This document shows, in pieces, positions 23,043 to 25,138 of a stretch of 64,000 nucleotides of DNA. Location of the stretch: the sequence record PQ666539, one strand, 5' to 3'. How positions within the stretch are numbered: the first letter of the stretch is position 1; the number at the start of each line of letters is the position of its first letter. A program made the position numbers and the translations under genes. A model generated the notes under the pieces. The model had not been told where the DNA came from, did no database searches, and saw only the letters and a program-made list of their open reading frames with translations. The stretch is from Shigella phage sb1.

Positions 23043-23786
23043 TTATTTCAGAAGAGTAACCTCAGCGATTTCTTCCCAACCGTTTTTGTCGGTCATAATA
23101 AAGTCAGCAAGATAAAGAGCAGTACGCAGTGAAACATTGCGCAAACGGTTAACATTAACTTTCATCCATGATAATGCTTTATAAGTTTCTTCATCAGAAA
23201 GACCGCGCTTTTGCATCATGTCAGTTGAAAGAATAACATCTTCAACCCTGACCATAATTTCTTCATTAGTGTGAACACCCAAATCCAAATAAACCGAGCG
23301 GGACACTAATGATTGTAAATGTGGAGCAAGTTTAGTACCACGGTCTAATTCGCGGTCAATGTCAACGTTTGTGATAAAAACAATCGTTCCTTTAAATTCA
23401 AACTCACGCTCAATGCCTTTTTCTTCTAAGTAAGAAGACGCAGTGCTCCAGCAGACTTTACGGGTCTCTCCAGTGTCCAGAGCGGCTTTTAGAAGATTAA
23501 GAATATCCATATCAGAGAAAACATCCACATCATCAATCAAAATGACAGAATTCTCTTCACGATTATTACAAAGCTGCTCATAAAGACCAATACCAGAGAT
23601 TTTACCATTAATGCTTTTATATTCAATGTATCCAATATCATTTGCTTTATTCAAAGCTTTATCTAAAGAATACGTTTTACCAATACCTGCTGCACCAGAG
23701 ATAATCAATGAACGAATATTTCCATTAATAAAACCATTCGTCATCATTCCCATAACATTAAATCTTTTATTAATGCGGGTTTTCAT
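23043..23786 (-). CDS. P-loop ATPase (Walker A GAAGIGKT, Walker B ILIDDVD)
   Basis: ORF track; motifs read directly from translation. Confidence 0.55.
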   Translation of the reverse strand: MKTRINKRFNVMGMMTNGFINGNIRSLIISGAAGIGKTYSLDKALNKANDIGYIEYKSINGKISGIGLYEQLCNNREENSVILIDDVDVFSDMDILNLLKAALDTGETRKVCWSTASSYLEEKGIEREFEFKGTIVFITNVDIDRELDRGTKLAPHLQSLVSRSVYLDLGVHTNEEIMVRVEDVILSTDMMQKRGLSDEETYKALSWMKVNVNRLRNVSLRTALYLADFIMTDKNGWEEIAEVTLLK

Positions 23787-23818
23787 ATCTTCATATGATT
23801 CTTTAACTTCTTCAACTT

Positions 23819-24010
23819 TTACACATCATATGAAATATCTGATTTGTAAACCCAAACACCGCGACGTTTACCGTCAATTTCAACAAAAACTTTACCATCT
23901 CCTTGTGCATCTACCGGAGCATTATCTGGGAACCATTCGCCTAAGAGCTCAAAAGTTCCAGAGATTTCTTTACCGAAGTAGATACACTTATTGATAGTTA
24001 CAGTTTTCAT
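23819..24010 (-). CDS. Hypothetical protein (63 aa)
   Basis: Track ORF 23819..24178 trimmed to Met MKTVTINK, which lies just downstream of a promoter and RBS. Confidence 0.4.
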   Translation of the reverse strand: MKTVTINKCIYFGKEISGTFELLGEWFPDNAPVDAQGDGKVFVEIDGKRRGVWVYKSDISYDV

Positions 24011-24029
24011 TTTATTCCCCAAATCCGTA

Positions 24030-24100
24030 TCAGTTGATAGTTGTATAGTACCATAAAGCTTTATGCTTGTAAACCGTTTTGTGAAAAAATTTTTGAAATA
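24030..24100 (-). promoter_or_regulatory. T-even early-type promoter with conserved leader
   Basis: Minus-strand GGTTTACAAGCATAAAGCTTTATGGTACTATACAACTATCAACTG. Confidence 0.45.
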
Positions 24101-24105
24101 AAAAA

Positions 24106-24123
24106 GGGAGCCCGAAGGCTCCC
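24106..24123 (-). terminator. UUCG-tetraloop terminator hairpin
   Basis: GGGAGCCCGAAGGCTCCC palindrome within A/T runs, immediately after ORF stop at 24126. Confidence 0.5.
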
Positions 24124-24125
24124 TA

Positions 24126-24371
24126 TCATTTATAATAACTTCGGTGGTTTTCAAGATAAACCCTCTCAAGGAAGTCATCCCAGAAACCCATGTCTACTTT
24201 TTGCTGCATACCGTTCTTAGAAGCTTCAATGGATGCTGCTTCTACTTGATCGACCACATCTTCCAAAAACTCTTGAACAGTTTTAAATGGATGTTTACCC
24301 AGCTTCACGTCGAGAATAAATGGAGCATCTTGAAGTGGATAGACTAAGTCACCAGTTTTGTAAATTTCCAA
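24126..24371 (-). CDS. Hypothetical protein (81 aa)
   Basis: ORF track; followed by terminator hairpin. Confidence 0.45.
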   Translation of the reverse strand: MEIYKTGDLVYPLQDAPFILDVKLGKHPFKTVQEFLEDVVDQVEAASIEASKNGMQQKVDMGFWDDFLERVYLENHRSYYK

Positions 24372-24400
24372 TAGTTGGAGTCCACCGCGACAAGCATGGC

Positions 24401-25138
24401 TCAGAGCTTTCCAGTCAATACCTTCATTAGCTTCGGCCTTACGAGCGCGTCGCCATATTCGGCATCTAATTTATTCAGTGACTGTTTAAGCTCGATAAGA
24501 GAAAGCGTTGTTTGATATTTACGACCCAACACGGTGTAGAACGTTTGTGGGCCTGTTTTCTCATGATTATGGAATACCCATTCACAGAATTCGTTCTCTG
24601 GAAGATGATGCTTAATATCTTCAACTTTAGTTCGACGAAGTCTAAGGGATTCGTCTTCTTGATAATCAACCCACTGATCGGGGAGTTGATTAACTACTTT
24701 CAATACATCACGCAATGCGGCCAAACGAGAACCCTTGACGCCGTATTTAGAAGCTTGCTTGCGAACATATCCTAAATAGGATTTCATGTTAGTCGTATAA
24801 AAACGAGAACGATTGTCTTGAATAAACTTCCATACATCAGGCAAATCAGATTTAACCACCAGTTCAGGTGGAGTGTGAAGCATATCCAATGCTACAGTTT
24901 CACCATCTGCAGCTAATTTAAAGAAATATTTAAGACTATATAGTTCATGGTCAATATCATCTTTAGTGTTTTTAGATGATGTATTGTTAGTGTTTTTGCT
25001 CATATGCTCTTTAACATTTCCGATAAGAATATCACGAGCAGGAGGAACAAAGATTTCTTTAAAATCGACATCAGATTCCGGAGTAGAAGTTCCATAAAGA
25101 TGACTACCAAAATAGCTTTTCATTACTGTTTTCATCAT
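24401..25138 (-). CDS. Predicted nucleotidyltransferase-fold protein (GS...DVD motif)
   Basis: ORF track; GSHLYGTSTPESDVDF resembles pol-beta-type nucleotidyltransferase signature. Confidence 0.45.
   Translation of the reverse strand: MMKTVMKSYFGSHLYGTSTPESDVDFKEIFVPPARDILIGNVKEHMSKNTNNTSSKNTKDDIDHELYSLKYFFKLAADGETVALDMLHTPPELVVKSDLPDVWKFIQDNRSRFYTTNMKSYLGYVRKQASKYGVKGSRLAALRDVLKVVNQLPDQWVDYQEDESLRLRRTKVEDIKHHLPENEFCEWVFHNHEKTGPQTFYTVLGRKYQTTLSLIELKQSLNKLDAEYGDALVRPKLMKVLTGKL

Follow-up and report, generated by a model that had tools for sequence, protein, structure and literature searches.

The stretch of DNA analysed here, called the window below, comprises 64,000 nucleotides of Shigella phage sb1 (sequence record PQ666539). 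Its nrdC-rI region, where the window is 96–97.5% identical to T4-like phages, contains two open reading frames (ORFs) on the minus strand, 23043..23786 and 24401..25138, both present at the coordinates given by a first-pass annotation. These two ORFs are the larger fragments of the orthologues of T4 nrdC.10 and nrdC.11, and each gene is broken by the deletion of a single base. The features of the locus are as follows, in the order of transcription.

24126..25138, minus strand: nrdC.11 orthologue, frameshifted, an RlaP / PF10127 pol-beta nucleotidyltransferase; 1013 nt compared with 1011 to 1014 in relatives
24401..25138, minus strand: N-terminal NrdC.11 fragment, the second ORF of the first-pass annotation; residues 1–229 are authentic and are followed by 16 out-of-frame residues
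25091..25111, minus strand: FGSHLYG (G11-S12 of ORF 24401..25138)
25064..25072, minus strand: DVD, same ORF
24944..24958, minus strand: DIDHE, same ORF
24878..24892, minus strand: ALDML, same ORF
24450..24451, minus strand: 1-bp deletion in nrdC.11, GGCGAACG to GGCGACG, codons 229/230
24126..24371, minus strand: displaced C-terminal 81 residues of NrdC.11, part of the helical domain; phrog_388 positions 260–339, E=1.3e-29
24105..24124, minus strand: intrinsic terminator hairpin after nrdC.11, AGGGAGCCTTCGGGCTCCCT and then a T run
24045..24073, minus strand: early-type sigma-70 promoter for nrdC.10, TTTACA, 17 nt, TACTAT, with TG
23043..24010, minus strand: nrdC.10 orthologue, frameshifted, an AAA+ ATPase; 968 nt compared with 969 in relatives
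24010, minus strand: start ATG of nrdC.10, with the Shine-Dalgarno sequence GGGGAATAAA upstream
23819..24010, minus strand: N-terminal 63-codon NrdC.10 fragment, a beta-rich domain, in the other frame; it stops at a TAA made by the frameshift
23824..23825, minus strand: 1-bp deletion in nrdC.10, GATGGTG to GATGTG, about codon 62
23043..23786, minus strand: AAA+ part of NrdC.10 from the internal Met76 to the end, the first ORF of the first-pass annotation; phrog_1250 positions 81–327 of 327
23673..23696, minus strand: Walker A GAAGIGKT, ORF 23043..23786
23523..23543, minus strand: Walker B ILIDDVD, same ORF
23367..23378, minus strand: sensor-1 FITN, same ORF

The orthology is supported by profile matches as well as by the effect of restoring the missing bases. 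ORF 23043..23786 matches phrog_1250 (E=8.5e-138) and ORF 24401..25138 matches phrog_388, annotated as 'nucleotidyltransferase' (E=2.9e-83), in both cases far past chance. In T4 the annotated genes are 978 bp (nrdC.10) and 1011 bp (nrdC.11, 'nucleotidyltransferase'), and the full-length proteins have 322 to 325 amino acids for NrdC.10 and 336 for T4 NrdC.11. Adding one A at the nrdC.11 deletion gives a protein of 337 amino acids that is ∼97% identical to T2/T4 NrdC.11 and shows almost no differences from the T4 and sb2 proteins when aligned; the stretch encoded by ORF 24126..24371 is after repair 100% identical to sb2. Adding one G at the nrdC.10 deletion gives a protein of 322 amino acids that shares ∼98% identity with P0121, its closest homologue in the database, and in alignment is nearly identical to NrdC.10 of T4 and sb2. 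The boundaries of both ORFs are thus a consequence of the two frameshifts, and their products as they stand have no exact match among 15 billion proteins.

Both splits are single-base deletions relative to T4, BW-1, sb2 and KNP5. The one in nrdC.10 is absent from all three close relatives compared and so is private to the window; an exact match to the deleted form is absent from 499 phage records, and among the matches listed all span the extra base. Searches of IMG/VR, GTDB genomes and JGI metagenomes did not find the deleted nrdC.10 form either. For nrdC.11 the identical deletion is found in Shigella phage pSs-1 only, where by alignment it sits on a different local haplotype. It was not found in IMG/VR, where the intact form was recovered as a positive control, and a degenerate pattern for the junction, run against metagenome and genome collections, gave three matches that are all due to chance, having no nrdC.11 homology. 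A megablast search with a 61-mer of the window at this site returned no match, probably because no 28-base word is left in common between the synonymous differences nearby, and tblastn with a peptide across the frameshift merges both frames, so that intact and deleted alleles cannot be separated in this way. Programmed frameshifting can be rejected for nrdC.10, since the deleted form occurs in 0 of 499 relatives and the genes of relatives have in-frame lengths, and likewise for nrdC.11, where all relatives examined except pSs-1 are intact at the site.

The two deletions fall in dinucleotides rather than in long homopolymers, and therefore are not classic sequencing slips. It is worth considering them together with the other changes that are private to the window. 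Among 774 private substitutions, 205 are G:C>T:A, compared with ∼6% among shared polymorphisms. These private G:C>T:A changes comprise 20 synonymous, 119 non-synonymous and 12 nonsense changes, and the private transitions 293 synonymous, 95 non-synonymous and no nonsense changes; the window carries an unselected G:C>T:A layer. Stop codons are found in genes 46, 3, 6, 9, 10, nrdD and nrdG, and gene 12 has a frameshift. Given this unselected layer, the stops in essential genes (46, 3, 6, 9 and 10) and the gene 12 frameshift, the deletions most likely belong to the same layer, and sequence error, damage or unselected mutation is the most likely origin, rather than adaptive pseudogenisation.

It is possible, though unlikely, that the lineage has truly lost nrdC.11 and perhaps nrdC.10, for which there would be two conceivable reasons: the genes serve no purpose in its hosts, or their products do harm there, for example by being sensed by a defence system. 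Biological loss does happen, as independent disruptions in other public phage records show: nrdC.11 is cut short in fPS-65 by a nonsense codon (position 254), has a 1-bp deletion near codon 94 in BYEP02 and is a 252 amino acid fragment in slur07, while nrdC.10 of KPV15 has lost its first 14 codons. In T4, nrdC.11-mobD.3 can be deleted (PMC9825161). Moreover, a match to pSs-1 on another haplotype would be rare for a random error, and the nrdC.11 deletion may consequently be a real recurrent allele. However, the damage in the window also affects essential genes and is thus not specific to nrdC.10 and nrdC.11, the nrdC.10 deletion was not found in any other record searched, and the protein sequence beyond both frameshifts is still ∼100% conserved, so that any loss must be very recent. 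That the same A deletion arose independently in the window phage and in pSs-1 through recurrent selection against nrdC.11 in certain Shigella or E. coli hosts is scarcely credible; were it so, the RNA-tailing activity of NrdC.11 might, for instance, be harmful or be sensed by a host defence, and as an alternative to selection codons 229/230 could be a true mutational hotspot. Lesions at the level of the sequence remain the preferred explanation of both deletions.

These lesions also affect how the space between the two genes is read. The first-pass annotation had placed a small gene, a promoter and a terminator between two complete genes. The terminator and the promoter are there, and in the Yersinia phage fPS-65 a 'predicted early promoter' is annotated at the same position; the genes, on the other hand, are not complete, and the supposed small gene is either the displaced 3' end of nrdC.11 (24126..24371) or the 5' end of nrdC.10 (23819..24010). 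The view that the genes probably do not form one operon is supported. Besides the two signals, a 620-bp cassette sits between nrdC.11 and nrdC.10 in BW-1, fPS-65 and BYEP02, Aeromonas phage 31 and a Vibrio contig encode NrdC.10 with no RlaP gene within 5 kb, and NrdC.11-like genes are also found with no NrdC.10 neighbour; taken together this supports separate transcription units. The same gene contexts lead us to reject an obligate ATPase–nucleotidyltransferase pair, and they make it improbable that NrdC.10 and NrdC.11 are a two-component system in which the ATPase loads or regulates the nucleotidyltransferase. Such a system would fit with the genes adjoining in T4, the window, sb2, KNP5 and pSs-1, with only one small gene lying between them in Acinetobacter phage Acj9, and with both being damaged in the window. 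Against it, in addition to the intervening signals and cassette and the unlinked homologues, stands an earlier survey in which orthologues of nrdC.10 were present in three of six phages but those of nrdC.11 in all six (PMC1524935).

The Walker A and Walker B motifs reported for the first ORF are both present. In an alignment of 42 NrdC.10 homologues the Walker residues G107, G110, G112, K113, D161 and D162 are invariant, as are the sensor-1 residue N216 and the arginines R185, R239, R292 and R297; among the invariant arginines there are candidates for an arginine finger or sensor 2. The proposed P-loop ATPase fold is supported by an AlphaFold2 model (pLDDT 89.8), for which Foldseek gives a probability of ∼1.0 to ORC/Cdc6, RFC, Hda, NtrC1 and NorQ, all AAA+ proteins. 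Sequence profiles are less specific: the best Pfam AAA families are AAA_14 (24.6 bits) and AAA_22 (23.7 bits), both under the cut-off of 27, 12 families are matched across the 42 homologues, none of them specific, and a PDB search with the single NrdC.10 sequence gave nothing meaningful. Judging from the model, NrdC.10 is a generic AAA+ ATPase in which an N-terminal beta domain precedes the AAA+ core and its lid, and the C-terminal part is helical and HTH-like. Our best guess is that it would use ATP to load or remodel a nucleic-acid–protein complex during host takeover. In the window the protein would come in two parts, the 63 N-terminal residues and, if translation re-initiates at Met76, the AAA+ core.

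The GS...DVD signature in the second ORF is also real. Pfam RlaP (PF10127, cut-off 23) scores 41.0 bits (E=2.3e-10) with the window fragment and 40.6 bits with the full-length protein P0001, with a match that spans profile positions 23–142 of 249 and aligns the N-terminal ∼130 residues of the protein. The window ORF has the pol-beta signature (hG[GS], D-x-D and a third conserved carboxylate), and across 63 homologues G10, S11, D22, D24 and D62 (P0001 numbering) are invariant and D60 and D84 nearly so; the third catalytic carboxylate of NrdC.11 is probably one of these conserved acidic residues. In the predicted structure a beta-rich region at about residues 154–208 lies between the nucleotidyltransferase core and the helical domain. 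What the window copy lacks is the two-domain build, nucleotidyltransferase plus C-terminal helical domain, seen in the PfRlaP crystal structure. Truncated NrdC.11 would lose the helical domain with the invariant R230, K243, H247, R250, P267 and K278, and is predicted to be inactive. PDB searches with the NrdC.11 sequence and with a 63-sequence profile gave nothing meaningful, the PfRlaP structure evidently being absent from the copy searched.

The first-pass annotation had suggested that the nucleotidyltransferase might serve in anti-defence or nucleotide signalling, with CBASS and Thoeris among the systems named, and this part has found no support. That NrdC.11 makes or mimics a second messenger, or disturbs CBASS, Thoeris or Hailong-type immunity, is very improbable: it would agree with the pol-beta fold and with the use of dATP by RlaP on RNA primers (PMC12776372), but Pfam places the protein in RlaP and not in the CD-NTase/SMODS families, its resemblance to HalB is at the level of the fold and limited to the nucleotidyltransferase core, and characterised RlaP enzymes work on RNA 3' ends and not on DNA or protein (PMC12776372). 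A PADLOC search was blank, no CD-NTase-type match was found with CD-NTase (SMODS) or PADLOC models or as a cGAS/OAS-type C-terminal domain, and NCBIfam returned sub-threshold noise only (Hda, MntA, RdrD).

A more plausible activity for intact NrdC.11 comes from the RlaP family itself, which according to later papers was defined and named by Burroughs and Aravind in 2016 (cited via PMC12776372 and PMC7824862). In 2025 Pseudomonas enzymes of the family were shown to add one or two NMPs to the 3'-OH of RNA in a Mn2+-dependent manner, with a preference for a mimic of cleaved tRNA, and to restore aminoacylation of a tRNA short of one nucleotide; T4 NrdC.11 is named there as a member, in cluster 5 of the PF10127 network (PMC12776372). 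The same repair role was predicted from the comparative genomics of jumbo phages (PMC7824862). By analogy, T4-type NrdC.11 probably has an RNA-repair activity and would add one or more nucleotides to an RNA 3' end. Pnk and RNA ligase could then mend tRNAs that have been robbed of a nucleotide by a host anticodon nuclease, for example RloC, and NrdC.11 would be a counter-defence factor acting through RNA repair. That a T4-type RlaP may complete Pnk/Rnl1 tRNA repair against RloC-type nucleases is an idea already in the literature. Gene neighbourhoods give a mixed picture. In a distant phage an Rnl1-type ligase is encoded 1.5 kb from an NrdC.11-like gene, and a second such gene has a CCA-adding enzyme 5 kb away. 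In T4-like phages, an association of nrdC.11 with RNA ligase or other repair genes was not found: the 20-kb T4 segment around nrdC.11 has no annotated ligase or Pnk gene, and neither does the sb2 region that matches window positions 1 to ∼49,500. On the established T4 map rnlA, rnlB and pseT are located elsewhere in the genome.

Overall, we think it probable that the region holds the orthologues of T4 nrdC.11 and nrdC.10 in this Tequatrovirus, two separately transcribed, dispensable early genes, each with a one-base deletion that is most likely a sequence-level lesion. Both genes and their domains are already known, the ATPase and nucleotidyltransferase domains having been noted in 2006 (PMC1524935), and RlaP has been characterised biochemically in a 2025 study that names T4 NrdC.11. 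Profile searches assign the nucleotidyltransferase to RlaP (PF10127) and the ATPase to phrog_1250. As to what might have undone the first-pass reading, the nucleotidyltransferase motif has not turned out to be spurious, but a known family or role largely exists in the form of T4 nrdC.10 and nrdC.11. The finding therefore carries little weight as a discovery; its chief use is practical and concerns the ORF boundaries and the sequence quality of the window, where many unselected lesions call for caution over any other odd or split ORF.

The closest known counterparts are the T4 genes. T4 nrdC.10 (NP_049708), also phrog_1250, is syntenic with the window copy and alike in its Walker A, Walker B and sensor motifs and in the position of its early promoter, but in the window the frameshift at about codon 62 leaves the AAA+ core cut off from the beta domain at the N-terminus. 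T4 nrdC.11 (NP_049709) is likewise a syntenic orthologue and shares the PF10127 match and the G-S...D-x-D signature, whereas the window copy has lost its C-terminal domain through the frameshift at codon 229. Among more distant AAA+ proteins, ORC/Cdc6, RFC, Hda and NtrC1/PspF have the same alpha/beta core and lid as NrdC.10, but TM-scores of 0.35–0.55 and identities of 11–16% allow no specific clade to be assigned, and the NrdC.10 family alone has the N-terminal beta domain. PfRlaP and PaRlaP, of the RlaP family (PF10127, COG3541), combine an N-terminal nucleotidyltransferase and a C-terminal helical domain just as T4-type NrdC.11 does. The T4-type proteins form cluster 5 and the assayed Pseudomonas enzymes cluster 1a, which are separate sequence clusters, and T4-type nrdC.11 has no adjoining RNA ligase gene although the family is named for its RNA-ligase association. 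The nearest solved folds to NrdC.11 are Hailong HalB (PDB 9dbh) and kanamycin nucleotidyltransferase (1kan, 6nlt), through the pol-beta nucleotidyltransferase core; with HalB the likeness is confined to the fold of that core, while kanamycin nucleotidyltransferase also has a C-terminal helical bundle in common with NrdC.11, whose C-terminal part gives HEPN-like matches.

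By its sequence the window (G+C ~34%) can be placed among the T4-like phages, as a Tequatrovirus. Positions 22900-25700 are matched by 736 phage records, with a top identity of 97.5%, and over a 20-kb stretch the identity to Shigella phages KNP5 and sb2 reaches ~96.5% at most. In the nrdC.10/nrdC.11 part every gene lies on the minus strand. Both ORFs of the first-pass annotation are present where it had placed them, with Walker A and Walker B motifs in one and a GS...DVD signature in the other.

Features of the nrdC.10/nrdC.11 region (window positions)
23043..23786, minus strand: ORF of 247 aa
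23523..23543, minus strand: ILIDDVD (Walker B), in the 247-aa ORF
23673..23696, minus strand: GAAGIGKT (Walker A), in the 247-aa ORF
~23824, minus strand: 1-bp deletion in nrdC.10, GATGGTG to GATGTG, near codon 62
24010, minus strand: ATG of the NrdC.10 head (63 codons, own Shine-Dalgarno sequence)
24073..24045, minus strand: promoter TTTACA-17-TACTAT, between the ORFs
24124..24105, minus strand: strong terminator hairpin, between the ORFs
24401..25138, minus strand: ORF of 245 aa
~24450, minus strand: 1-bp deletion in nrdC.11, GGCGAACG to GGCGACG, codons 229/230
25111..25064, minus strand: FGSHLYG...DVD, in the 245-aa ORF

In profile searches the 247-aa ORF matches phrog_1250 (E=8.5e-138) and several AAA profiles (E 1e-4 to 1e-5), and the 245-aa ORF matches phrog_388 'nucleotidyltransferase' (E=2.9e-83) and Pfam PF10127 (RlaP; E=2.3e-10, 41 bits, cut-off 23). 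These matches are well outside chance, and the nucleotidyltransferase-like motif is not spurious. Judging from the alignments, both ORFs are gene fragments, since each covers its PHROG only in part. The 247-aa ORF spans only positions 81-327 of phrog_1250, and the adjacent ORF 23819..24178 accounts for positions 1-64 with its C-terminal half; the 245-aa ORF spans positions 35-234 of phrog_388, and positions 260-339 match ORF 24126..24371. The counterparts in T4 are 978 bp (nrdC.10) and 1011 bp (nrdC.11, annotated 'nucleotidyltransferase'), and those in BW-1, KNP5 and sb2 are 969 bp and 1011 to 1014 bp. Alignment to relatives shows one base absent from each window gene. When it is re-inserted, proteins of 322 aa (NrdC.10) and 337 aa (NrdC.11) are regained, which are ~97-98% identical to their nearest database homologues and, when aligned, show hardly any difference from the T4 and sb2 proteins. 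The gene boundaries first proposed do not hold, since frameshifts split both genes. The terminator and promoter described between the ORFs are real, but because the repair restores full-length proteins, the 'small gene' described with them is a displaced fragment, either the 81-residue NrdC.11 tail or the 63-codon NrdC.10 head. Known domains had been correctly seen in known genes, but with wrong boundaries, and the integrity of the sequence itself is doubtful. A 2006 paper (PMC1524935) had already reported an AAA motif in nrdC.10 and a COG3541 nucleotidyltransferase domain in nrdC.11.

Stops and frameshifts across the window were surveyed by projecting the sb2 CDSs onto it. Over the first 47 kb, 13 CDSs carry premature stops, which affect nrdG, rpbA, nrdC.6, nrdC.7 and nrdC.8 as well as genes listed below. 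In the last 15 kb, stops interrupt baseplate genes 6, 9 and 10, and gene 12 has lost 1 bp.

Disruptive changes in the window
4676..4678: premature stop, gene 46, codon 319
13399..13401: premature stop, nrdD
21188..21190, 21753..21755 and 22294..22296: further examples of stop-creating sites
25911..25913, minus strand: in-frame TAA (GAA>TAA) in a 173-aa gene (25599..26120)
45504..45506: premature stop, gene 3, codon 83
50316..52298: CDS of gene 6, premature stop at codon 35
~60275, plus strand: 1-bp deletion relative to sb2, frameshift in the short-tail-fibre gene 12 (CDS 59783..61332)

The gene split at 25911..25913 lies two genes upstream of nrdC.11 and is listed as ORFs of 69 and 90 aa. Nearly all of the stops (TAA or TGA) originate from G>T or C>A changes. 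Compared with three close relatives, 49 kb of the window holds 774 private substitutions, 205 of them (26%) G:C>T:A, versus ~6% of the polymorphisms common to the window and its relatives. The private G:C>T:A changes (20 synonymous, 119 non-synonymous, 12 nonsense) have the pattern of unselected mutation, and the private transitions (293 synonymous, 95 non-synonymous, 0 nonsense) that of ordinary purifying selection. Genes 46, 3, 6, 9 and 10 are essential in T4; a phage with stops in them could not grow, and the sequence as written is not viable. The window therefore holds a layer of lesions that stem from errors in the sequence, from damage to the template (with an 8-oxoG-like signature) or from mutation without selection.

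The nrdC.10 deletion is most simply read as part of this layer. It is private to the window: its deleted form has no exact match in 499 phage records and is absent from IMG/VR, GTDB genomes and JGI metagenomes. Gene 12 has a comparable lesion, also private and disruptive. For nrdC.11, Shigella phage pSs-1 (L007, 24615..25624) has a single-A deletion identical to that at 24450, and its GenBank record annotates the same split into 244 and 81 aa; the RefSeq label on the truncated pSs-1 ORF is still 'nucleotidyltransferase'. Common descent of the two deletions is unlikely, because synonymous sites on the flanks have diverged markedly (13 differences in 76 nt) and the window haplotype is nearer to sb2 and T4 than to pSs-1. 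Besides pSs-1, no carrier was found in IMG/VR or the phage records, and three junction-pattern matches in other collections were rejected as chance. The occurrence of one identical nrdC.11 deletion in the window and pSs-1, whether by recurrence or by coincidence, is the sole unusual element here, and a low-probability lead. Other nrdC.11 genes are disrupted independently of the window's: in fPS-65 (L022, 886..1896) codon 254 is a nonsense codon, in BYEP02 (L023, 809..1896) 1 bp is missing near codon 94, and slur07 has a fragment of 252 aa. The nrdC.10 of Klebsiella phage KPV15 (L018, 1159..2170) is without its ATG and the rest of its first 14 codons, and is annotated as a 247-aa ORF from Met76, identical in extent to the window's fragment. 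T4 tolerates deletion of the nrdC.11-mobD.3 block (PMC9825161). Both genes are evidently dispensable and subject to decay, and since such decay is seen in other public records, besides the identical pSs-1 deletion, a genuine loss of nrdC.11 in the phage lineage is retained as a rival, though a rather improbable one. In sb2, and not in the window, 7 bp are missing close to the 5' end of vs, which encodes the valyl-tRNA synthetase modifier; the window's vs (30932..31259) is as long as in T4 and pSs-1.

The earlier view that the two genes are probably not one operon is borne out, and an obligate NrdC.10-NrdC.11 pair can be rejected, because the terminator and promoter part nrdC.11 from nrdC.10, a cassette can lie between them, each occurs without the other, and survey counts differ. 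The cassette, ~620 bp with two small genes, is found in BW-1 (L001, about 7120..7850), fPS-65 (2013..2422) and BYEP02 (2014..2423), and is absent from the window (site ~24095..24108), T4, sb2, KNP5 and pSs-1. In BW-1 each of its two ends is bordered by a terminator hairpin, a conserved T-rich stretch and an early promoter, as if modules had been shuffled at repeated regulatory units. NrdC.10 occurs without a nearby RlaP in Aeromonas phage 31 and a Vibrio contig, and RlaP without NrdC.10 in other sequences; in Acj9 a single gene still separates the two. Of six phages compared in an earlier survey (PMC1524935), three had an nrdC.10 orthologue and all six an nrdC.11 orthologue.

For NrdC.10, 636 relatives were found, which among the matches listed are mostly from T4-like phages of enterobacteria, Acinetobacter and Aeromonas, plus a Vibrio contig. 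In its model (pLDDT 89.8), residues 1-62 form an N-terminal beta domain of five strands, next to an AAA+ core and its lid; the C-terminal helices give a weak HTH_37 signal. No Pfam AAA family scores above cut-off, and Foldseek matches many AAA+ clades equally well, among them ORC/Cdc6, RFC, Hda, NtrC1, NorQ and dynein (TM-scores 0.35-0.55). An ATP-driven loader or remodeller would be a low-confidence guess.

Among 1.84 billion representative proteins, 3322 relatives of NrdC.11 were found. In 63 homologues (34-54% identical to the query) G10, S11, S21, D22, D24, N56, D62 and Y131 are invariant, as are R230, K243, H247, R250, P267 and K278. The AlphaFold2 model (pLDDT 93.9) has an N-terminal nucleotidyltransferase domain, a beta-rich middle and a C-terminal helical domain (213-335), which by analogy would form the substrate cleft. 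As the frameshift strips six invariant residues and this whole domain, the truncated product is predicted to be inactive. The suggested role in CBASS, Thoeris or signalling found no support (PADLOC: no match). In one metagenomic phage contig (L013, 6001..9355) an NrdC.11-like RlaP gene has an Rnl1-type RNA ligase (PF09511) 1.5 kb downstream of it. In another (L025, 6001..12969) the gene directly after RlaP is AcrVA2-like (PF26125), and a CCA-adding enzyme lies 5 kb downstream. Either setting is consistent with a neighbourhood for tRNA repair or counter-defence.

The domains of both genes are already known, and the RlaP family is already biochemically characterised. The name RlaP comes from the family's linkage to RNA ligases. 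In a December 2025 preprint (PMC12776372), T4 NrdC.11 falls in cluster 5 of the family network, and two Pseudomonas enzymes add 1 or 2 NMPs to an RNA 3'-OH with Mn2+, favour a cleaved-tRNA mimic, and restore aminoacylation of a tRNA without one anticodon-loop nucleotide. RlaP is proposed there as an antidote to "smart" ribotoxins, such as RloC, that excise a nucleotide after the cut, and the same repair role is predicted in PMC7824862.
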